From contig JBPOIT010000009.1 in the NCBI GenBank assembly GCA_052034235.1, positions 72,203-136,202 of the forward strand: DNA of 64,000 bases, written 5' to 3'. Positions within the stretch are counted from its first letter, which is position 1. Each line of letters starts with the position of its first letter. Under the pieces are notes generated by a model. That model was not told the DNA's origin, did no database searches, and saw only the letters and a list, made by a program, of their open reading frames with translations. This document shows, piece after piece, positions 32,156-39,286 of the stretch. Both the position numbers and the translations under genes were made by a program. This stretch comes from Candidatus Levyibacteriota bacterium (GTDB taxonomy: Bacteria > Patescibacteriota > Microgenomatia > Levybacterales > UBA12049).

Positions 32156-32245
32156 TGGCGGAGAGAGGGGGATTCGAACCCCCGATAGCCTTGCGGCCAT
32201 ACACGCTTTCCAAGCGTGCGCACTCGACCACTATGCGATCTCTCC
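32156..32245 (-). tRNA. tRNA-Ser(GGA), class II, with CCA encoded
   Basis: Manual fold: acceptor GGAGAGA/TCTCTCC, anticodon loop TTGGAAA, long variable arm, T-loop GGTTCGAATCC. Confidence 0.8.
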
Positions 32246-32387
32246 AAAAGTTGTTTCTTTTATAAACTTTTTGTAAGCTTCCTATCAAGTTGTATATCAT
32301 TCCTGAGAGTATACTTATCGTGTCATTATATCGCATTTACAAGGTATTTGCATAAATGACAGAGAGATTGTAATATTAGGAGGAATT

Positions 32388-33125
32388 ATGAGTAATGAAA
32401 ATTCAGCAGAAGAAGGTGCAGTAGTCAAACCAGAGAGAGCTCATGAAGGTAATGCAGAGGTTGGAGAACCTCTGCCTGATCGCACAGCACCAAGTCGTTT
32501 GCAACCGCCAGAAACGGTTAATGTAGACGGTGAAAATTCTCCGAGTCAACCGGACCACGAGACACCATCTCCAGAGTTTAATGATTTGCACCCCGATGAA
32601 CGGAAAGCATTTGAGGAGCAAGGTATTACGAGCGATGTGTACGACGAGTTAAAGGAGTTAAGTCAGGAGATTATACAAAATGGCAGCCTTCCTCCAGAAA
32701 AACAAGAAAGGCTTGATGAAATGGTTGATAAACTGCAGGATTTGTCACCAGATATAAAACAGAAACTGGGTGAAATGTTAACGGCTGAGAACCAAAAGTT
32801 GAGCGAAGAGTTAGACAAACCCGATCCAGCTGCAGCGCTTGAAGTGGATCCTCAAACGGTTTCTGCACTCGGTGAAGCACAGGGGGCGGTTAATCATTTG
32901 CTTGCAAGTGATGAGAGAGAATTAGATATCGATCGGGCAAAAGCAGCGTCTGATGCATTACATAAAGCTCGAGAGAAGCTCGATCTTGAGAAAGCAGACA
33001 AATTAGGGGAAGGTCCGTCTAAGGCTTATAGGATATGGGTTACTTTGGGGATAATGTTTTATCTCTATGTAGGAGCGCAGTATGCGATGGCTAAATTTGT
33101 TGGCGGTTTTAGTTCCAATAAGTAA
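32388..33125 (+). CDS. acidic hypothetical protein with a C-terminal TM anchor
   Basis: Glu/Asp/Pro-rich with a coiled-coil-like segment. C-terminal YRIWVTLGIMFYLYVGAQYAMA. Confidence 0.45.
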   Translation: MSNENSAEEGAVVKPERAHEGNAEVGEPLPDRTAPSRLQPPETVNVDGENSPSQPDHETPSPEFNDLHPDERKAFEEQGITSDVYDELKELSQEIIQNGSLPPEKQERLDEMVDKLQDLSPDIKQKLGEMLTAENQKLSEELDKPDPAAALEVDPQTVSALGEAQGAVNHLLASDERELDIDRAKAASDALHKAREKLDLEKADKLGEGPSKAYRIWVTLGIMFYLYVGAQYAMAKFVGGFSSNK

Positions 33126-33187
33126 ATACCCGTGTAAGAATCCAAACTTCTTGATAGCATGTGAATTCTACACGGTAACCAATAATG

Positions 33188-33271
33188 CGGAGAGGGGGGG
33201 ATTCGAACCCCCGAGGCTCATCGCCTGGCGGTTTTCAAGACCGCTGCACTAAACCACTATGCGACCTCTCC
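33188..33271 (-). tRNA. tRNA-Ser(TGA), class II
   Basis: Manual fold: anticodon loop CTTGAAA, long variable arm, T-loop GGTTCGAATCC. Confidence 0.8.
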
Positions 33272-33337
33272 AGTCGTCTGTGTATTGTATCAAAAATTTT
33301 CCTTGACTTCATCCAGAGAATCATTTACAGTGAAGAT

Positions 33338-33985
33338 ATGAGTGAAGCTGCCCTTCAACCACAAGATCAACCTCAAGTGCCGCCTCAGGAGCCCCAACAA
33401 GCGCCTCCTCCTCCTATTCAGCAGCGGCCATATGATTCCAATCAGCCCTACCAACCAATGTATGCTAACCGATATGATCCCCGCGTCTCACACGATGTTA
33501 AAACATTTTTAACATGGCACGCTCCTGGTAGACCTTTTAAAGAGCACTCAAAGGAATACTTTATTAATGGTTTTCTTATTATGATGGCTCTTGAGATTAT
33601 CCTCTTTTTGTTTGCCCAATATCTTCTTATGTTGGTGGTTTTCTCGTTTGTCTTTTTGTCTTACTCGCTTGCCATTGTTCCGCCGAAAGATTTTTATTAC
33701 AAGATAACAAGCGAAGGCATTCGTATAGAGGACCATGTGTTTATTTGGGAAGAACTATATGATTTTTACTTTTTAACCCATCATGAAGAGGATACATTAC
33801 ATATCAGAACGAAGGCATATCTTCCCGGAGAATTAACTATTACGTTAGGAGATATCTCTGTTGGTCAGATTAAGAAAGTATTACTTCCATATCTTCCGTA
33901 TCGGGAATACGTCAGACCCAATTTTACTGAACAAGCCGGAGATTGGTTAACCCAAAACTTTCCTCTTGAAAGATCCACACAATAA
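33338..33985 (+). CDS. hypothetical membrane protein with a Pro/Gln-rich N-terminus
   Basis: The ORF track begins this ORF at 33185, but its first 51 codons are antisense to tRNA-Ser(TGA). The first ATG clear of the tRNA is 33338 (MSEAALQ...). Two TM helices. Confidence 0.5.
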   Translation: MSEAALQPQDQPQVPPQEPQQAPPPPIQQRPYDSNQPYQPMYANRYDPRVSHDVKTFLTWHAPGRPFKEHSKEYFINGFLIMMALEIILFLFAQYLLMLVVFSFVFLSYSLAIVPPKDFYYKITSEGIRIEDHVFIWEELYDFYFLTHHEEDTLHIRTKAYLPGELTITLGDISVGQIKKVLLPYLPYREYVRPNFTEQAGDWLTQNFPLERSTQ

Positions 33986-34038
33986 TTTGATTGCAAGCCT
34001 CAGATAAGGTAAAATACACATGTTGCTTTGCAAAATAC

Positions 34039-34112
34039 GCACCCGTAGCTCAGTTGGATAGAGCGCAACATTGCGGATGTTGAGGCCGGAAGTTCGAATC
34101 TTCTCGGGTGTA
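34039..34112 (+). tRNA. tRNA-Arg with apparent anticodon GCG (G34 instead of the usual A34)
   Basis: Manual fold: acceptor GCACCCG, D-loop AGTTGGATAGAGC, anticodon stem CAACA/TGTTG, loop TTGCGGA. It is closely similar to bacterial tRNA-Arg(ACG) except at position 34. Confidence 0.7.
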
Positions 34113-34119
34113 CACAGTT

Positions 34120-34209
34120 GGAGGGATCGCATAGTGGTCGAGTGCGGCGGTTTCGAAAACCGCTGTCCTGGATTTTCCGGGACCGTGGGTTCGAATCCCA
34201 CTCCCTCCG
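34120..34209 (+). tRNA. tRNA-Ser(CGA), class II
   Basis: Manual fold: anticodon loop TTCGAAA with a long variable arm. Confidence 0.8.
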
Positions 34210-34244
34210 CACAAAACAAAGATCAATTTTAATGCGAAATATCT

Positions 34245-34700
34245 TTAATGTTCCCAATAAAAATCAGGGGGTTCACCTTCACATGTTTGGGCAACAAAAT
34301 CTGGCTGAATGCCATCTCTCCAGGCAATAAGGACACAGCTTTTCGCTTTACCTCCACGTTCTTCAACTGCGCCTACCGCTTTACGAGTAAGGAGTCCTCG
34401 TTTACTGGCTTCATCAATGACAAGTACTTGTCGATTAGAACAATCTCCCAAACTAACTAATGTATCATCAAGATGATAATCTCCAGTTTCGTCTTTGTAC
34501 ACAGGAATCCCCACAACATTACGGCTTTTGATTTTCAGTCGTTTTGCAATTGCAGCAGCAACCGGAAAACCACCAGTACTTAATGCCAGAATAGTATCCG
34601 GTAGAAATGTATCGTCAGCTGCTATCTGTTCAAGGATTTCATCAAGAAGTCTATTAAATTTGTCCAATGTAACAATTTCTTTACTAGCGGATGCACTCAT
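34245..34700 (-). CDS. type I phosphoribosyltransferase (purine/xanthine-guanine PRTase-like)
   Basis: PRPP-binding motif VLVIDEASKRG. 151 aa. Confidence 0.65.
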   Translation of the reverse strand: MSASASKEIVTLDKFNRLLDEILEQIAADDTFLPDTILALSTGGFPVAAAIAKRLKIKSRNVVGIPVYKDETGDYHLDDTLVSLGDCSNRQVLVIDEASKRGLLTRKAVGAVEERGGKAKSCVLIAWRDGIQPDFVAQTCEGEPPDFYWEH

Positions 34701-34761
34701 ACATGGAGTATATCATTTTCAATTGTTTACGATGAACGGGGGAATTAAGTATGAAAACTTC

Positions 34762-34797
34762 GGGGCGGGCCAGATGGAACGATATTGGAACTTTTTT
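34762..34797 (+). repeat. tRNA-Ser(GCU) 3'-end-like direct repeat, copy 1
   Basis: GGGGCGGGCCAGATGGAACGATATTGGAACTTTTTT. It aligns to the acceptor-3'/T-arm of tRNA-Ser(GCT) at 37532-37560. Confidence 0.7.
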
Positions 34798-34830
34798 AGT
34801 ACTGCCAATGGTATAATTGACTAATTATTT

Positions 34831-35265
34831 ATGAAAAAAGTTATTAAAAAAGTTAATAAACCTATTTTCATTTTTGTCGCAGGGATTTTAAGCGCAATTA
34901 TAATTGGTGATTTGTTTAAAAATTTTTATAGAGATTTTATTTATAAAGATACAGACGACGTTATACTTCAAGAAGCTAAAAATTCACCCACTGATTATTT
35001 AACTGAACAATATACTGCTATATCTTTTGTAAATATGGGTGGTGGCGCTGCAGGGTATTGTGGGACATGGGTTTCAGTTGTGCCCATAAAAAAATTTGAT
35101 GAATTTCAAAAAGCACCATATTCGCTTGCTTATACTACAGATTGTGGAGCAGATATATCCTTAAAATGGATTGACAAAACAACATTAGAAATCAGTGGGA
35201 TAATTGATGACGAATACAACGAAAATAAAAATAGTGACGGGAAAGTAAAAATTATTTACAAATAA
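34831..35265 (+). CDS. hypothetical secreted/membrane-anchored protein
   Basis: N-terminal TM/signal anchor, 144 aa. The only plus-strand gene in the cassette array. Confidence 0.45.
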   Translation: MKKVIKKVNKPIFIFVAGILSAIIIGDLFKNFYRDFIYKDTDDVILQEAKNSPTDYLTEQYTAISFVNMGGGAAGYCGTWVSVVPIKKFDEFQKAPYSLAYTTDCGADISLKWIDKTTLEISGIIDDEYNENKNSDGKVKIIYK

Positions 35266-35303
35266 CACATTTTTTATCTAACACAGTTGATGCTAAGACT
35301 CTG

Positions 35304-35337
35304 AGCGGGCCAAAAGGGACGATGTTGGAACTTCTTT
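35304..35337 (+). repeat. tRNA-Ser(GCU) 3'-end-like direct repeat, copy 2
   Basis: GAGCGGGCCAAAAGGGACGATGTTGGAACTTCTTT. Confidence 0.65.
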
Positions 35338-35370
35338 ATCAAACAATACTAATTTTAGGCGAAATTAGTT

Positions 35371-35787
35371 TTATAATTCGACAGGATCATCATAGGCATC
35401 TTTCAGTAATTTAATTCTTTCGCCAAAAGCATCAAGTTGAGCGGGTTCAACTTTAAGCATGAGTGTACATTCTTCTGCGACTTCATATACTTCTTCAAAT
35501 ACTATTTTGAATTTTAAAATAATTAATCCTGTATTATTTGCTTTGAACCCTTCAATCTTTACACTTTTAACTTTACCATCAGATCCTTGCAGTTCCCAAA
35601 GGAATTTATTATCTGAGAGAATATTGGTAGTCAAATTTCTACCCCACGTTTTTTGTAAATCTTCTAGTGAAGCATAGCAATTGAAATTTGCAGACAGTCG
35701 GGCATTTGCTACATGTATATTCAATTCAATGAGATCCAGTAGTGAATCATCAACCCATCTAATATTAAAAATTAATTTATTTATCAT
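35371..35787 (-). CDS. hypothetical cytoplasmic protein (cassette gene)
   Basis: 138 aa with no recognisable domain. The minus-strand sequence TGCTATAAT lies 6 nt upstream of its ATG. Confidence 0.5.
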   Translation of the reverse strand: MINKLIFNIRWVDDSLLDLIELNIHVANARLSANFNCYASLEDLQKTWGRNLTTNILSDNKFLWELQGSDGKVKSVKIEGFKANNTGLIILKFKIVFEEVYEVAEECTLMLKVEPAQLDAFGERIKLLKDAYDDPVEL

Positions 35788-35793
35788 CCTTTG

Positions 35794-35856
35794 ATTATAG
35801 CAGAATTGAGGCTACGAAATATTGCGGGACAGTTGGGACAAAGTTTGAAGTTTTAT
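35794..35856 (+). repeat. degenerate repeat unit, copy 3 (ATTATAGCAGAATTGAGGCT plus a decayed tRNA-like part)
   Basis: GATTATAGCAGAATTGAGGCTACGAAATATTGCGGGACAGTTGGGACAAAGTTTGAAGTTTT. Confidence 0.55.
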
Positions 35857-35866
35857 CATTAAAAGC

Positions 35867-36334
35867 TCATTCTCTCATTATATTTAGTTTATAAAATATC
35901 GTATCTCTATATAGATCCATATCATCAGGTACTGAATCTACTTTTTGAAAACCTTCTTTCATGTAAAATTTATTTGCCGCAATCAAAGCTTTAATTGTTC
36001 CTAAAAATATATCATGATATCCATTGTCTTTCGCAAAAAACTTTAGTGTAGAAATCAGTTCATGTGCTACGCCCTTCCCTCTAAAGGTTTTATCTACGTA
36101 CATTCTTTTAAGATAGCCTCGATTACTGCCACAATTTTTCAGAGCAATAGTTCCGATTACTCTGTCATTCACAATCGCAATCCAAAAATTGCTTTTATCA
36201 TTTTGATAAACTTCAGGGATTTTGTCTAAGTCAGGTCGACTAACACCCGTTAATCCAAACTCATCCTCAAGGATATTTAAAATAAACTGCTTTGTTTTGC
36301 TTTTATATTCCTCCGAATACGTGCGTATTTCCAT
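35867..36334 (-). CDS. GNAT family N-acetyltransferase
   Basis: Acetyl-CoA-binding R/Q-x-x-G-x-G/A motif (FRGKGVAHELI). Start set at the ATG of MEIRTYS; the ORF track's N-terminal extension is a translation of the upstream repeat. Confidence 0.65.
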   Translation of the reverse strand: MEIRTYSEEYKSKTKQFILNILEDEFGLTGVSRPDLDKIPEVYQNDKSNFWIAIVNDRVIGTIALKNCGSNRGYLKRMYVDKTFRGKGVAHELISTLKFFAKDNGYHDIFLGTIKALIAANKFYMKEGFQKVDSVPDDMDLYRDTIFYKLNIMRE

Positions 36335-36396
36335 AAAAAGATTATAGCAAAGTTCCAAAGCACACAGAGTCTCTAAAAGAATTGAGGCTAGGAAAC

Positions 36397-36430
36397 GGGG
36401 CGGGCTAGAGGGGACTATATTGGAACTTTT
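36397..36430 (+). repeat. tRNA-Ser(GCU) 3'-end-like direct repeat, copy 4
   Basis: GGGGCGGGCTAGAGGGGACTATATTGGAACTTTT. Confidence 0.7.
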
Positions 36431-36716
36431 ATTCAATATAATGAGTATTTTTTACAGATTCAGGGGGGATAGTTAAACAGACAAAAATCAGTTCTTCATT
36501 AGAATCGTTTATTACTTCATGAACTTCACCTTTTTGGTAGATATATGTTTGACCTTCTTTATGAGTTTTGCAGTTACCTTTAATGACGTGGACTATTTCA
36601 ATACCATCATGAAAATGTTTCTTTTCAATGACGCCAGGTTTCATATAGTACACATCACAAGATCCAAAATCATCATGAGTTATTTTATGTGATTTTCTAT
36701 ATGGTGAAGTTGCCAT
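36429..36716 (-). CDS. cupin-domain protein
   Basis: Cupin_2-like metal-binding motif HFHDGIEIVHVIKG...GEVHEV. Start set at the ATG of MATSPYR; the upstream ORF-track extension translates the repeat. Confidence 0.6.
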   Translation of the reverse strand: MATSPYRKSHKITHDDFGSCDVYYMKPGVIEKKHFHDGIEIVHVIKGNCKTHKEGQTYIYQKGEVHEVINDSNEELIFVCLTIPPESVKNTHYIE

Positions 36717-36748
36717 TGAAGTAATTATACCAGTTCCAAAAAAGCTGT

Positions 36749-36783
36749 GGGGTGGGCCAGAAGGGACGATATTGGAACTTTTT
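36749..36783 (+). repeat. tRNA-Ser(GCU) 3'-end-like direct repeat, copy 5
   Basis: GGGGTGGGCCAGAAGGGACGATATTGGAACTTTTT. Confidence 0.7.
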
Positions 36784-36800
36784 GCCAATCTCGACAGTAA

Positions 36801-37094
36801 CTAATCACCAATAAATTTTATATATTCTAGATCATCTGCATTTTTTATAAAATTTATCATTTCGTTCTTAAGGTTTTGATTAATATTAAATCTTTGCAGT
36901 TCAGTAATTAAATCAGGTTTTTGAAGATCATTAAAATACGTATCGCCATAAGGGTCAATATATGAAAGTAAAGGAAATTTAGATTTATAATCCTTTATCT
37001 TATATAACTCACCCATAAAATCTGCAAAATTAATTCCACTTACTTTCAAGGTTTCTCCATCCTCGTTGATTTTTCTAATACCTATATGTTGCAT
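36801..37094 (-). CDS. hypothetical small protein (cassette gene)
   Basis: 97 aa with no recognisable domain. The minus-strand TGCTATAAT lies 6 nt upstream of its ATG. Confidence 0.5.
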   Translation of the reverse strand: MQHIGIRKINEDGETLKVSGINFADFMGELYKIKDYKSKFPLLSYIDPYGDTYFNDLQKPDLITELQRFNINQNLKNEMINFIKNADDLEYIKFIGD

Positions 37095-37100
37095 AATTGA

Positions 37101-37162
37101 ATTATAGCAGATATGAGGCTAAGCCGAGTAGCGGGCTAGATGGGACGATATTGGAACTTTTT
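37101..37162 (+). repeat. full repeat unit, copy 6 (ATTATAGCAGATATGAGGCT plus the tRNA-3'-like part)
   Basis: It aligns nearly base for base with 37501-37560, which is the flank plus 3' end of tRNA-Ser(GCT). Confidence 0.75.
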
Positions 37163-37184
37163 GCGCTCAAAGTTGAAAACGGAA

Positions 37185-37493
37185 TCAATAAATTAAGGGT
37201 AAAAGTTTTAATAATGATACTACGAAAAATACTAGCCCAACAATCAATGTCACGATCTGTTGAATCAGGAGCGCCCACTTCTCGGAAGCTGGAACAGGCT
37301 TATTATTCCAGTCCTTATACGCAAATTCTCCAAGTTGCCTAAATTTTATTATTAAGAATAATCCTGCCAATAATCCAAAAAAGTATCCATTTCCATCAAT
37401 TGCCATTAAAACCGATGCAGCTACTAAAAGTATGCCAGCTAAAATAGCGAAGGATTTTAGATGATCAATCATTTTTTTTGAAGTTTTAGTCAT
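37185..37493 (-). CDS. small membrane protein with 3 TM helices (first cassette gene after the tRNA)
   Basis: Start set at the ATG of MTKTSKK; the ORF-track extension runs antisense through tRNA-Ser(GCT). The minus-strand TGCTATAAT lies 7 nt upstream of the ATG. Confidence 0.5.
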   Translation of the reverse strand: MTKTSKKMIDHLKSFAILAGILLVAASVLMAIDGNGYFFGLLAGLFLIIKFRQLGEFAYKDWNNKPVPASEKWALLIQQIVTLIVGLVFFVVSLLKLLPLIY

Positions 37494-37531
37494 ATGAAAT
37501 ATTATAGCAGAATTGAGGCTGGGAAGCTGGG

Positions 37532-37620
37532 CGGAGGAGATGGGATTCGAACCCATGTGAGAGGTTTTAACTCTCGGTGGTTTAGCAAACCACTCCACTA
37601 GGCCACTATGGGACTCCTCC
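37532..37620 (-). tRNA. tRNA-Ser(GCT), class II
   Basis: Manual fold: acceptor GGAGGAG/CTCCTCC, anticodon stem GTGGT/ACCAC, loop TTGCTAA, long variable arm, T-loop GGTTCGAATCC. Confidence 0.8.
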
Positions 37621-37623
37621 AGC

Positions 37624-38625
37624 TTATAGAATTTGGTTATGTTTACGTAATCTTGCATTATGTGTGCCCACTATTTGCAGATATCTGTTAACTTCCTGCT
37701 CATTATACAACCAAACCTTTTTATTTTCTATCTTATCAATTATTTTTGGTGTGAATCCTAATCCTTCCAATGTTTGTGATACAAACAATAGCAGAGGTTT
37801 AGATCTATTTGTAAAACAGATTTTTTTATAAACATATTCCTTGTTGTTTCCTTTATATTTGTGCAAAAACACTCCACCGTCTGTATCCATAAGACCTCGT
37901 AAACAAGCAATTTTATATTCTTGCATTGAGGAGATCCAATCAGGTACCCCAACTTGCTGTTTTACTTTACTACCTATTTTCAAACCAAGTGTTGTAAGAT
38001 AATGAACTAAAGATACACCATTATAATAAAGAGATACGCCTTTATCATTTTTGTGTTTATGTATCCTTGGACTTTCTCCAAACAATTCTTTTCCAATCTG
38101 GCAAACGAAGAGAATATATTCTCTGTCTGCTTCACTATTTAACGTTATACAAATCTGTCCAGGGGTTAATCCGCCGTCTCCAAGCATAATCCCAATATAT
38201 TCTGCTAACTTGCTGCTATATCCTGAAGGAAGTGTATAACTTTTACAGAATGGTATAATCCCTTTCTCTCTAAGAAGAGCTAGCGCTTTTTTCCCACCCT
38301 TACTTCTTCCTTCTTTAGTCGCTTGACATCCATATTTTTTATATGCTGCAATTCCACCTATTGCATTTGCTTTTTGCTGAGCAGTTTTCCATCTTAGAAT
38401 CAGTACTTCTTTCTCTTCAGGTAAATGAAGATTAAATTTCTCACAGAATATCTCTGCCGCTCTTAGAGACAATGTTAGCTTCTCTTTTTTCCAATCTAGT
38501 AAACTTCGAGGATGAACATCAACCATTTTTGCCAACTGTTGGGTTGTTAAACCACTACTTGTATAAACATCTTTTAAGAAGCTTTTTTGCTGATTTAATT
38601 GGAACTTGACCCTTATATTTTTCAT
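37624..38625 (-). CDS. free-standing double-motif LAGLIDADG homing endonuclease with an N-terminal HTH
   Basis: Two LAGLIDADG motifs (IGIMLGDGGL and LRGLMDTDGGVF) and an N-terminal HTH-like segment (LTTQQLAKMVDVHPRSL). Its stop lies 3 nt from the tRNA-Ser(GCT) 5' end. Confidence 0.75.
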   Translation of the reverse strand: MKNIRVKFQLNQQKSFLKDVYTSSGLTTQQLAKMVDVHPRSLLDWKKEKLTLSLRAAEIFCEKFNLHLPEEKEVLILRWKTAQQKANAIGGIAAYKKYGCQATKEGRSKGGKKALALLREKGIIPFCKSYTLPSGYSSKLAEYIGIMLGDGGLTPGQICITLNSEADREYILFVCQIGKELFGESPRIHKHKNDKGVSLYYNGVSLVHYLTTLGLKIGSKVKQQVGVPDWISSMQEYKIACLRGLMDTDGGVFLHKYKGNNKEYVYKKICFTNRSKPLLLFVSQTLEGLGFTPKIIDKIENKKVWLYNEQEVNRYLQIVGTHNARLRKHNQIL

Positions 38626-38735
38626 ATCGGCTACGCAGATCCTCTATAAAACTGATCCTATCAATTTTAACTTCACACTACAATAGGAGATTCATAATTG
38701 AGTATTTTATGCTACAATCAAAAACATCCTAACTT

Positions 38736-38820
38736 GGAGAGGTCGCATAGTGGCCGAGTGCAGAAGTTTACTAAACTTCCGACCTGCAAGGGTCCGCGGG
38801 TTCGAATCCCGCCCTCTCCG
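38736..38820 (+). tRNA. class-II Ser-type tRNA with apparent anticodon ACT (a non-canonical A34); possibly a variant or a pseudogene
   Basis: Acceptor and D-arm are identical to tRNA-Ser(TGA). The anticodon stem GAAGT/ACTTC encloses the loop TTACTAA, so positions 34-36 read ACT. Long variable arm and a canonical T-arm. Confidence 0.6.
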
Positions 38821-39019
38821 CATCTATTCATGCAAGAGTTTTATGCTACAATATTTACATGTCCCTCCTCGATTTTCTTTTTCCTAAGCGGTGTGTCCGT
38901 TGCCAAAAAATTGGGTCTTATATTTGTCCTCAGTGTTCTACCTATATTTCTTTTACTGACACAATAATCTGCGTTTCGTGTCAGCGTCCGGCGATTGGTG
39001 GTATTATGCATCCTGATCT

Positions 39020-39286
39020 TCAATTCTGATAACCTTTCTGCGTTGTAGGATCAGATAATTCAGAGGCATCAGTTGGTGCTTGTGGTAAATGATTAGGAAT
39101 CTCCGTTCCTACTAGCTCTACTAATCGTTTCGGCAAATCAGGGTCAATGTCAGCGATCTCCCTAGTTAATTCACCTATTACTTCAGCTCTGTCTTCCGGA
39201 ATTATTCCTCCATATGAAAAGAGCTTTTCTATTTTCGCTCGTTCAATGCCATTCTCTTCAAGCTTCGTTCTAATATCTCGTGGCAA
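39020..39286 (-). CDS. hypothetical acidic small protein
   Basis: 88 aa with no recognisable domain. Confidence 0.35.
   Translation of the reverse strand: MPRDIRTKLEENGIERAKIEKLFSYGGIIPEDRAEVIGELTREIADIDPDLPKRLVELVGTEIPNHLPQAPTDASELSDPTTQKGYQN

Follow-up and report, generated by a model that had tools for sequence, protein, structure and literature searches.

A free-standing LAGLIDADG endonuclease gene, probably a homing element, adjoining the 5' end of tRNA-Ser in CPR bacteria

The window studied here, a 64,000-nt stretch of contig JBPOIT010000009.1 from a Candidatus Levyibacteriota bacterium, carries on its minus strand an open reading frame (ORF) for a LAGLIDADG protein that ends beside a tRNA-Ser(GCU) gene. 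Its stop codon occupies 37624..37626 and leaves a gap of 2-3 nt to the tRNA 5' end, the close contact that an initial annotation of this DNA had described. At the tRNA 3' end lies a cassette array (34743..37561). No second copy or remnant of the endonuclease family was found in the window, including beside the other four tRNA-Ser genes. The features of the locus are the following:

37624..38625, minus strand: LAGLIDADG endonuclease gene, ORF with ATG start, 333 aa
38437..38592, minus strand: N-terminal helical DNA-binding-like region, aa 12-63, containing a helix-turn-helix (aa 28-46)
38167..38196, minus strand: LAGLIDADG motif 1, IGIMLGDGGL, aa 144-153, read from the sequence
38176..38178, minus strand: putative catalytic D150 (motif 1)
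37870..37905, minus strand: LAGLIDADG motif 2, CLRGLMDTDGGV, aa 241-252, read from the sequence
37879..37881, minus strand: putative catalytic D249 (motif 2)
37528..37621, minus strand: complete tRNA-Ser(GCU), the resident host gene (ARAGORN)
37532..37620, minus strand: the same tRNA-Ser(GCU) as called by Rfam, 51.5 bits
38626..38645, minus strand: u5' (AGAGGATCTGCGTAGCCGAT), immediately preceding the ATG, a decayed copy of the 5'-terminal ~20 nt of a tRNA-Ser
38646..38735, no strand assigned: spacer from u5' to a divergent tRNA-Ser(ACU), presumed promoter region

The protein was modelled with AlphaFold2 (pLDDT 89.6), which predicts N-terminal helices at residues 12-24, 28-34, 39-46 and 54-63, the second and third forming the helix-turn-helix (HTH), followed by two pseudo-symmetric alpha-beta-beta-alpha-beta-beta-alpha domains. 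Pfam LAGLIDADG_3, the family to which the initial annotation had proposed an alignment, matched domain 2 above cut-off (aa 236-320, E=2.1e-10) and LAGLIDADG_2 covered domain 1 weakly (aa 144-195); matches to HTH_3 (E=0.004), HTH_17 and Xre-like profiles at aa 18-69 were all sub-threshold, and profile comparison weakly linked the N-terminal region to PezA and HipB, two proteins of the XRE type. Searching the PDB with Foldseek returned I-Tsp061I, a monomeric archaeal intron endonuclease, as top match (E=1.5e-12, TM 0.77 on target), followed by intein endonuclease domains and I-DmoI, with a probability of 1.00 for 2dch, I-DmoI, I-AniI and I-OnuI; the WhiA structures 8dy9 and 3hyi were also among the matches. 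The earlier description of a monomeric, free-standing protein with an N-terminal HTH and two LAGLIDADG motifs was thus borne out by the motifs in the sequence, by the HTH in the model and the sub-threshold Pfam matches, and by a two-domain fold closest to I-Tsp061I. A loss of the catalytic acids, which would have marked a degenerate protein, was not seen: the putative catalytic D150 and D249 are both present and invariant in 38/38 distinct relatives, as are the G-D-G of motif 1 and the T-D-G of motif 2, and D44, W45 and P69 of the N-terminal region are invariant in an alignment of 28 homologues (A1). With two motifs, two Asp and the predicted fold, the 333-aa protein can be placed in the monomeric LAGLIDADG superfamily, whose enzymes make Mg2+-dependent, site-specific double-strand cuts with 4-nt 3' overhangs.

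The gene stands alone. Rfam detected only tRNAs, and no intron or ribozyme, in 37300..39000 even at E<=1, and neither Pfam nor NCBIfam found an intein splicing (Hint) domain in the ORF. The NCBIfam matches were confined to the endonuclease inserts of intein-containing proteins and fell far below cut-offs; the intein matches in the PDB were likewise to endonuclease inserts. As the ORF has its own ATG and stop codon, we rejected an intron- or intein-encoded origin, in agreement with the initial annotation. The best reading of the window ORF is that of an intact stand-alone "selfish" endonuclease gene, whose product is predicted to cut DNA.

A word-index search recovered 737 homologues, and the protein belongs to a large and apparently undescribed family of ultrasmall (CPR) bacteria that comprises at least 303 clusters (50% identity, E<=1e-30); a literature search found no description of tRNA-linked LAGLIDADG genes in CPR. 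No relatives were found in phage collections, where only remote LAGLIDADG cores (~28% identity) appeared, or among IMG/VR viral contigs. Every distinct bacterial copy with enough downstream sequence (44/44) is followed directly by a co-oriented tRNA-Ser gene, and no other tRNA type occurs in that position. The position of the ORF stop varies: at one extreme it precedes the tRNA 5' end by 23 nt, at the other it lies 40 nt into the tRNA gene, and in 15/24 genome loci it falls inside. The adjoining anticodons are GCU (the majority), GGA, ACU, CGA and UGA. GGA-linked endonucleases form a separate clade, which includes the second copy of L013, a genome with two copies at two different tRNA-Ser genes; the ACU-linked copy belongs to L016, and distant Parcubacteria copies adjoin CGA (four), UGA (one) and GCU (one). 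The initial annotation had suggested tRNA-Ser or its flank as a target, and this linkage, together with the presence/absence pattern at the same position described below, strongly favours the idea. We therefore infer that tRNA-Ser(GCU) is part of the homing site.

Ahead of the ATG, clear tRNA-Ser 5' fragments whose first nucleotide lies 19-22 nt before it were recognised in about 22/38 distinct loci, 14 of them with p<0.01 by weight matrix. The window u5' is weak by itself (weight-matrix p=0.16) and is positionally homologous to the clear fragments. The u5' copies are more alike among themselves than to the resident tRNA; instead of being passive scars, they may have been selected as promoter, 5'-UTR or operator elements. 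Relatives have a -10 box, TATAAT or a variant of it, immediately next to u5'; its equivalent by position in the window is TTTTAT, with TAGGAT and TAAAAT further upstream. A consensus scan gave no strong minus-strand promoter in the spacer 38646..38735, so the spacer is presumed to hold the promoter of a transcript with the endonuclease and tRNA-Ser(GCU). Empty alleles have a -10 box 9-14 nt upstream of the tRNA, the position that endonuclease codons occupy in most occupied alleles. The order of the unit is thus promoter, u5' (~20 nt), ORF and a complete tRNA-Ser that begins where the ORF ends or within its terminal part. The endonuclease gene is probably co-transcribed with the tRNA and, because no Shine-Dalgarno sequence precedes the window ATG at normal spacing, probably translated weakly.

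We then compared alleles chosen by tRNA sequence alone, namely tRNA-Ser(GCU) genes with common first 15 nt. Of 39 distinct alleles, 13 carry the full endonuclease, 3 are partial (2 decayed and 1 cut by the contig end), 19 are empty and 4 were too short to judge, so that the gene is absent from 19/35 informative alleles. Six-frame translations of the empty alleles contained no endonuclease remnants detectable with the family HMM. Between tRNA-Leu and tRNA-Ser, four loci (L049, L051, L067, L073) have a spacer of 13-28 nt, as against 1,021 nt with the gene in L092. The empty locus L084 and the occupied loci L089/L037 are syntenic on both sides at 78-83% nucleotide identity and differ by a 1,050-bp insert bounded by the tRNA 5'-end repeat; in L089/L037 the flank in common with L084 runs into the u5' fragment. 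No strain-level pairs of occupied and empty alleles were found, the best flank identity between the two states being ~78-86%. For a further occupied/empty pairing across the tRNA-Ser(ACU) spacer (L039 against L054/L034), divergence prevented alignment. Sequence differences between the tRNAs of occupied and empty alleles, compared by eye, are confounded by phylogeny and support no claim.

Degenerating copies were also found. The gene has an in-frame stop in L015, is frameshifted in L059 and truncated at the N terminus in L023, and L027, L028 and loci of the L029 type retain 32-46-aa C-terminal stubs that still adjoin the tRNA. An alternative genetic code was rejected for L009 and L015, since their in-frame stops are TAA and TAG and not TGA; these are pseudogenes or sequencing errors. 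Both marks of a mobile element, presence/absence polymorphism at one fixed site and decaying copies, are therefore found in this family, and the ~1-kb unit is an optional insertion at a site where related genomes have the same tRNA with its own -10 box only.

These alleles bear on the possibility that the protein is domesticated, following a WhiA-like logic: a DNA-binding factor of the host that controls how the neighbouring tRNA-Ser gene is transcribed or its product matured, and is kept as its operon partner. Conservation in A1 (28 homologues) extends over the full length of the protein at 54-74% identity, which would fit a host function, and so would the conserved operon-like position with probable co-transcription, the tendency of endonuclease clades to follow host tRNA types, the presence of WhiA among the structural matches, and a conserved pseudo-target (u5') beside the promoter that could act as operator. 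We nevertheless regard such a role as unlikely, given that over half of the informative alleles lack the gene and that nonsense, frameshifted and stub copies exist; a genome may also hold two copies at different tRNA-Ser genes (L013), both catalytic Asp are invariant, and the HTH is N-terminal, not C-terminal.

The isoacceptor switches (GCU, GGA, ACU, CGA, UGA) and the five deep clades found at identical tRNA 5' ends suggest movement. The clades nonetheless largely follow the D-arm type of the host-lineage tRNA, and no near-identical copies were found in unrelated backgrounds, so inheritance looks mostly vertical, with no recent transfer seen. The patchy pattern could also arise with no ongoing invasion, if u5' and the tRNA recombine and the gene is lost. 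Another possibility is an inert relic, that is, an intact-looking gene that persists vertically by hitch-hiking on the promoter of an essential tRNA and is no longer active or mobile. The lack of evidence for recent horizontal spread, the degenerate window u5', an ATG with no Shine-Dalgarno sequence and the decayed copies elsewhere in the family are all compatible with this idea, which we consider distinctly unlikely: the window ORF has no interruption, six strain-level contigs carry it at 99% identity, and active-site and scaffold residues are invariant across copies only 36-45% identical to the window protein, which implies long-term purifying selection on the enzyme.

The initial annotation had further proposed that breaks made by the endonuclease at tRNA-Ser(GCU) drove the insertion or gene conversion that built the array at 34743..37561. 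The two are physically adjacent in the window, a second endonuclease-positive locus (L019) has an array slightly downstream, and SegB provides a precedent for a tRNA-cluster endonuclease that can drive segmental amplification (PMC13096335). The array, however, adjoins the 3' end of the tRNA. Pseudo-3'-tRNA repeats form its boundaries, and after each repeat come a promoter and a gene that differs from one cassette to the next; it is not made of copies of one segment, unlike a SegB amplification. Such boundaries are typical of elements that integrate site-specifically at the 3' end of a tRNA, and so the array fits this process and not break repair at the 5' end. Some 22 endonuclease-positive loci extend 3 kb or more beyond the tRNA, and of these the window and L019 alone have an array; the close relatives L103 and L104 carry the endonuclease and no array. 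Conversely, L078, which lacks the endonuclease, has an array with the same AAAAGTTCCAATATCG repeat. Across all screens (repeat scans of 12 relatives, self-BLAST of all loci and an nhmmer profile of the window repeat), arrays were detected only in the window's own species, L019 and L078, and no association of the endonuclease with arrays emerged in related genomes, an outcome that the initial annotation had named as refuting. Strains with 99% identical endonucleases differ in their cassettes, which shows array turnover without tying it to the enzyme. A role of the endonuclease in building the neighbouring array is therefore not supported, as none could be demonstrated, and we hold it to be very improbable that the enzyme drove its formation. 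As for the array itself, integron attC sites were rejected (the repeats form no hairpins and fold no better than shuffled sequence, z -1.1 to +1.2), and no integrase was found among the 20 window ORFs scanned.

Taken together, we favour, with a probability of about two in three, the reading that the window gene is intact and belongs to a large family of free-standing LAGLIDADG homing endonucleases, specific to CPR bacteria, whose niche is the 5' edge of tRNA-Ser genes. The enzyme would recognise a long asymmetric site composed of the promoter/leader and the first ~20-30 bp of the tRNA-Ser gene, with the LAGLIDADG core binding about 22 bp and the HTH domain extending the contact. For the window, the empty site as reconstructed would be GATAGGATCAGTTTTAT+GGAGGAGTCCCATAGTGGCCTAGTGGAGTGG (promoter/leader plus the 5' part of the tRNA). 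Alleles free of the endonuclease would be cut and the ORF copied in during repair. In a carrier, the site would be split between the promoter with the u5' half and a complete tRNA that lacks its promoter, and these two incomplete halves would make the carrier immune to cutting. The tRNA would still work, since the carrier retains it in full length and RNase P would trim the upstream sequence, giving a phenotypic neutrality like that conferred by introns and inteins. Subfamilies would have moved to different serine isoacceptor genes, which have a 5' sequence in common.

A more elaborate version, which we put forward tentatively as possible though doubtful, would make this arrangement a third route to neutrality besides introns and inteins. 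The cassette would enter the body of tRNA-Ser near the D-loop and bring a replacement 5' segment for the tRNA, while the old promoter and 5' fragment would remain as a pseudo-site that escapes cleavage and from which the endonuclease is expressed, perhaps under its own control. With the stop codon in many copies located within the tRNA, processing by RNase P would generate a non-stop mRNA and tie endonuclease dosage to tRNA maturation and trans-translation. The homology arms would be minimal, comprising only the ~20-nt fragment and the tRNA body, which would account for spread over all five serine isoacceptor genes throughout CPR.

In textbooks, homing endonucleases live in introns and inteins, and most of the known free-standing ones come from phages. 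The family described here would add a new niche, with hundreds of clusters that are chromosomal, strictly linked to a single tRNA isotype at its 5' end, often overlapping it, and accompanied by a duplicated tRNA fragment. It offers a large set of natural LAGLIDADG enzymes, each with its probable target evident from the surrounding sequence, of use for studying the evolution of recognition codes, for meganuclease engineering and for defining the role of an added HTH domain. It also raises the questions of how a selfish nuclease stays harmless beside an essential tRNA and whether tRNA processing throttles its expression, and it accounts for a hypothetical protein and a rearrangement hotspot that both recur in CPR assemblies.

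Several known systems resemble the window gene in part. I-Tsp061I and I-DmoI (PDB 2dch, 2vs7), whose type the window protein matches by profile at E=0.002, are likewise single chains with two LAGLIDADG domains and an acidic residue ending each motif. They are, however, proteins of about 180-200 residues encoded inside archaeal rRNA introns, whereas the window gene is intronless, lies at a bacterial tRNA-Ser and encodes an extra N-terminal region of ~130 residues with the HTH. WhiA, a domesticated transcription factor, also combines a double LAGLIDADG scaffold with an HTH domain; in WhiA the HTH is C-terminal, the catalytic acids are lost and the gene is known as universal and single-copy in its lineages. 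The window protein differs in its N-terminal HTH, its two invariant Asp and a patchy distribution with pseudogenes, and on these grounds, and given the two copies in L013, a WhiA-type regulator class was rejected.

Integrative elements that target tRNA genes and bring a replacement tRNA segment use tyrosine or serine integrases and usually duplicate the tRNA 3' end. As in the window family, their insertion leaves a partial tRNA at one boundary and restores a complete one at the opposite boundary, so that the essential gene survives, but here the 5' end is duplicated, the insert is ~1 kb and a LAGLIDADG endonuclease is its only gene. CPR bacteria also carry LAGLIDADG endonucleases in rRNA insertion sequences and introns (PMC11270868, in which tRNA goes unmentioned). 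These have the host group, the superfamily and conserved stable-RNA gene targets in common with the window family; they lie inside 16S/23S genes and are removed from the RNA, whereas here the tRNA would be kept by duplication of its 5' segment. Where homing at tRNA genes without an intron is concerned, the nearest functional parallel is SegB of T4/T6, a free-standing homing endonuclease whose gene lies among clustered tRNA genes and whose target motif derives from a tRNA (PMC2330249). A conserved tRNA motif is part of the 27-bp SegB site, and the tRNA genes on its flanks are inherited along with it (PMC2330249, PMC13096335); recognition is of the T-psi-C arm with no preference for tRNA isotype (PMC13096335). 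The analogy is functional only. A SegB-like class was rejected, as the window family has a LAGLIDADG and not a GIY-YIG fold and no relatives were found in phage records or viral contigs: SegB is a phage-borne GIY-YIG enzyme, whereas the window family is LAGLIDADG, chromosomal in CPR and strictly linked to tRNA-Ser, whose 5' end it abuts or overlaps and of which a duplicated 5' fragment lies on its flank.

The initial annotation had described the gene beside tRNA-Ser(GCU) as a free-standing LAGLIDADG endonuclease with a helix-turn-helix (HTH), neither an intron nor an intein ORF, and analysis with Pfam, AlphaFold2, ARAGORN and Rfam bore this out.

37624..38625, minus strand: endonuclease ORF, ATG start, 333 aa
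37528..37621 (ARAGORN) or 37532..37620 (Rfam), minus strand: complete tRNA-Ser(GCU), beginning 2-3 nt past the endonuclease stop codon

Within the 333-aa protein, Pfam places LAGLIDADG_3 at residues 236-320 (E=2.1e-10, over the curated cut-off), a weak LAGLIDADG_2 match at residues 144-195 and several HTH models, all sub-threshold, at residues 18-69. Motif 1 reads IGIMLGDGGL (residues 144-153) and motif 2 CLRGLMDTDGGV (residues 241-252). An AlphaFold2 model built from 29 homologues was rated confident (pLDDT 89.6, pTM 0.72), and runs from a helical N-terminal region with the HTH through two long helices to two alpha-beta-beta-alpha-beta-beta-alpha domains. Foldseek returned I-Tsp061I as its best PDB match (E=1.5e-12, TM 0.77 on target), followed by intein endonuclease domains, E-DreI, I-AniI and I-DmoI, with WhiA lower, and a profile search of PDB sequences gave the same picture. 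No intron or ribozyme signal was detected across 37300..39000, even at E<=1, and no intein splicing blocks in the protein. Both catalytic Asp residues are retained, and they are invariant in all 38 distinct relatives. As every computable hallmark is present, we assign the gene to the LAGLIDADG superfamily; the ORF is an intact two-domain enzyme gene with predicted endonuclease activity. That it might be an inert relic is quite unlikely, given active-site residues invariant down to 36-45% identity to the window protein and an endonuclease 99% identical in six strain-level contigs.

Homologues and related contigs come from Microgenomates-type CPR bacteria (Levy-, Gottesman-, Collier-, Beckwith- and Amesbacteria) and the remoter ones from Parcubacteria, while some records are labelled otherwise, for example as Gammaproteobacteria or Bathyarchaeia. 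The window also encodes dnaA, dnaN, PGK, YidC and an RND pump, and is therefore chromosomal. Five tRNA-Ser genes (GGA, UGA, CGA, GCU, ACU) and tRNA-Arg(GCG) lie within 7 kb (32156..38821), and comparable clusters, often including tRNA-Arg(CCG) and tmRNA, occur in several related Microgenomates loci. The anticodon ACU is probably unusual for a bacterial tRNA-Ser; the gene here (38736..38821, plus strand, Rfam 52 bits, alongside tRNA-Ser(GCU)) is a lineage trait and not an error, because the anticodon recurs in many of the Microgenomates loci fetched for comparison (L010, L015, L016, L034, L039, L054, L077, L078, L097-L104; L numbers denote such genome or metagenome loci throughout).

A word-indexed search returned 737 homologues, most of about 330 aa with full-length coverage, and when the representatives of 50%-identity clusters were scanned exhaustively with HMMER, 303 clusters scored E<=1e-30 and 923 scored E<=1e-10. 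In 28 loci from species-representative genomes scanned for tRNAs, tRNA-Ser lies within a few nucleotides 3' of the homologue on the same strand; two loci that at first seemed to lack it, L010 and L019, do carry a tRNA-Ser(GCU), one that ARAGORN overlooked and whose D-arm is unusual (GGAGGGTGACTCAGACGG...; L010:2009-2095, L019:6988-7075). ARAGORN also overlooks the tRNA-Ser(GCU) at L104:8990-9085, whose 9-nt anticodon loop (TTGCTTTAA) could stem from a homopolymer error, as the contig's name points to nanopore assembly. tRNA-Ser(GGA) follows the copies in L020, L021 and L042/L079 as well as a divergent second copy in L013, and these copies form a clade of their own; the L016 copy precedes tRNA-Ser(ACU). 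Of six distant Parcubacteria members, chosen solely for long contigs, four lie before tRNA-Ser(CGA), one before tRNA-Ser(UGA) and one before tRNA-Ser(GCU). Altogether, all 44 distinct bacterial copies whose downstream sequence is long enough are followed by tRNA-Ser, and none by a tRNA of another amino-acid specificity. Stop codons fall between 23 nt ahead of the tRNA 5' end and 40 nt into the tRNA, and 15 of the 24 genome loci have an ORF that runs into it. Such an ORF usually ends at GGAGGGTGA (position +9) or GGAGGAGTCCGATAG (position +15), and many family proteins therefore terminate in a Gly-Gly drawn from the acceptor stem. Across the loci compared, linkage of the family to tRNA-Ser 5' ends is strict. 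The distant L110 (1-1944) has a wider gap than other copies, with tRNA-Ser(CGA) about 150 nt past the stop; its order is seryl-tRNA synthetase, an unannotated 235-aa ORF, tRNA-Ser(UGA), endonuclease, tRNA-Ser(CGA).

We took a sample blind to the endonuclease, searching metagenome contigs for the 5' portion of one common Microgenomates tRNA-Ser(GCU) (GGAGGAGTCCGATAG...TTGCTAAAC); the 68 loci retrieved collapsed at 97% identity to 39 distinct alleles.

State of the tRNA-Ser(GCU) 5' side in 39 distinct alleles
Full-length gene next to the tRNA 5' end: 13
Partial gene: 3
Gene absent, 1 kb or more of sequence upstream: 19
Too short for a call: 4

The partial genes comprise a C-terminal stub of 46 aa, a copy with a frameshift and one cut off by the contig end, and a family HMM found no endonuclease remnant in the translated upstream DNA of the empty alleles. 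Decay among genome loci takes the form of an in-frame TAG (L015), an N-terminal truncation (L023) and stubs of 32-45 aa still adjoining the tRNA (L027, L028). The spacing between tRNA-Leu(CAG) and tRNA-Ser(GCU) is 13-28 nt in L049, L051, L067 and L073, and 1,021 nt in L092, where the endonuclease gene lies between. Likewise, the empty L084 and the occupied L089/L037 match on both flanks (78-83% nucleotide identity), with an insert of 1,050 bp setting the occupied loci apart. The gene is thus variably present, absent or decayed at the tRNA-Ser 5' site across these alleles. A domesticated WhiA-like regulator of tRNA-Ser would fit its conservation and operon-like position, but is unlikely when 19 of the 35 informative alleles are empty, pseudogenes exist, the L013 genome has two copies and the catalytic residues are kept. 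As reservations on the homing reading, no strain-level occupied/empty polymorphism and no sign of recent horizontal transfer were found; clades track host tRNA types.

Upstream homology between L084 and L089 extends across the -10 box (GGTAAAAT) into the tRNA, whose first 9-19 nt (GGAGGAGTCGCATAGTTGG) it includes; it stops after this 5' fragment and restarts 1 nt ahead of the complete tRNA, so that direct repeats of the tRNA 5' end flank the insert. The decayed upstream duplicate, u5', is a GGAGGNNTNGCNNAGCNG-type sequence that begins 19-22 nt before the ATG in approximately 22 of 38 distinct loci, usually immediately after a TATAAT-like box, and has U8, A14, R15 and G18 where a tRNA would have them; its sequence even provides the GTG start codon in L108 and L109. 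Scored with a weight matrix from 65 real tRNA-Ser 5' ends against random windows of the same loci, u5' reached p<0.01 in 14 of the 38.

38626..38645, minus strand: window u5', AGAGGATCTGCGTAGCCGAT

The window copy, weak alone (p=0.16), matches the clearer copies of its closest relatives column for column, and the family's sequences show the tRNA 5' segment duplicated alongside the gene. That u5' copies are closer to one another than to the resident tRNA suggests selection on the element, a further reservation on the homing reading. A -10 box stands 9-14 nt before the tRNA in empty alleles, whereas most occupied alleles have endonuclease codons there; in these, the tRNA is probably expressed by read-through from the promoter before u5' or from promoters inside the ORF, and the window holds a candidate, TAGAAA-17-TATAAT, at 37730..37702. 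A second conserved module upstream of the ATG, a near-consensus promoter (TTGACAAC...TTCGGGTTTTRTTAG(G/T)AT), occurs in L015, L016, L024, L031, L032 and L070, in two different endonuclease clades, which suggests either that promoter modules have been exchanged or that the element is regulatory and ancestral.

We favour a homing endonuclease, at a probability of roughly two in three. The enzyme would recognise a long asymmetric site made up of the promoter/leader and the initial 20-30 bp of a tRNA-Ser gene, whole only in empty alleles; in carriers it would be divided into promoter plus u5' and a promoter-less tRNA, conferring self-immunity. Repair of the break off a carrier allele would copy the ORF in, with the short fragment and the tRNA body as the sole conserved homology arms, which fits spread to all five serine isoacceptor genes, whose 5' sequence is common. 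The tRNA would keep working, as the carrier has a complete copy of it and RNase P would trim the 5' extension. More speculatively, u5' and its promoter could act as an autorepression operator; a stop codon within the tRNA could make expression dependent on the unprocessed precursor, since RNase P cleavage would leave a non-stop mRNA; and recombination between u5' and the tRNA could remove the gene cleanly.

The initial annotation had also suggested that the endonuclease could drive the cassette array 3' of the tRNA.

34743..37561, both strands: repeat array, six units plus the tRNA 3' end

Read on the tRNA strand, each unit has a pseudo tRNA 3' end (AAAAGTTCCAATATCGTCCCATCTAGCCCGC), then AGCCTCAATTCTGCTATAAT, then the ATG of a small gene that differs from unit to unit, and each single-gene cassette has its own TGnTATAAT promoter. 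The array is hypervariable, as cassette sets differ between strains with 99% identical endonuclease and four of six strain-level contigs end exactly at the tRNA 3' end. Its repeats form no attC-like hairpins and no integrase was found among 20 window ORFs scanned; it looks like a CPR cassette system that resembles integrons but is not one. Further arrays lie at L078:1686-6649, L019:8435-12432 and L097:4363-5040. No association of endonuclease with array was seen, since most endonuclease-positive relatives, including the close L103 and L104, are array-free, and the endonuclease-free L078 carries an array with the same repeat motif. The array moreover sits at the opposite tRNA end with hallmarks of serial site-specific integration, and SegB-type amplification yields tandem copies of one segment (PMC13096335), unlike the array here. 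We consider the driver role highly improbable and abandon it, while retaining a free-standing LAGLIDADG enzyme gene probably aimed at tRNA-Ser. A 56-aa ORF (38859..39029, plus strand) starts like a ComF-type double-zinc-ribbon N-terminus and then stops, a 151-aa phosphoribosyltransferase-only ORF (34245..34700, minus strand) lies at the far end of the array, and L103:6029-6790 holds a single DZR_2+Pribosyltran gene directly after tRNA-Ser(GCU); this hints that an ancestral gene was split or displaced by rearrangement or cassette insertion.

A single gene of this kind is ordinary for a CPR genome; the family-wide tRNA-Ser rule is unexpected and directly testable. CPR bacteria are known to carry LAGLIDADG genes within rRNA insertions (PMC11270868) and in the spacers of rRNA operons (PMC8172020). 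A search of open-access papers and bioRxiv turned up no account of an HTH-LAGLIDADG family linked to tRNA-Ser, of reading frames that extend into the tRNA or of duplication of the 5' fragment. Membership of the window gene in the intron, intein, WhiA or SegB groups was rejected, and it is probably a homing endonuclease gene of a new variety. By Foldseek its core is of the same structural type as I-Tsp061I/I-DmoI. In function, the closest precedent is SegB of phage T4: this free-standing GIY-YIG endonuclease is encoded within a tRNA cluster, its site takes in a tRNA T-arm motif (PMC2330249), and its homologues associate with tRNAs of many isotypes (PMC13096335). Whereas splicing protects the host gene of intron and intein endonucleases, here a full tRNA copy and RNase P would do so.
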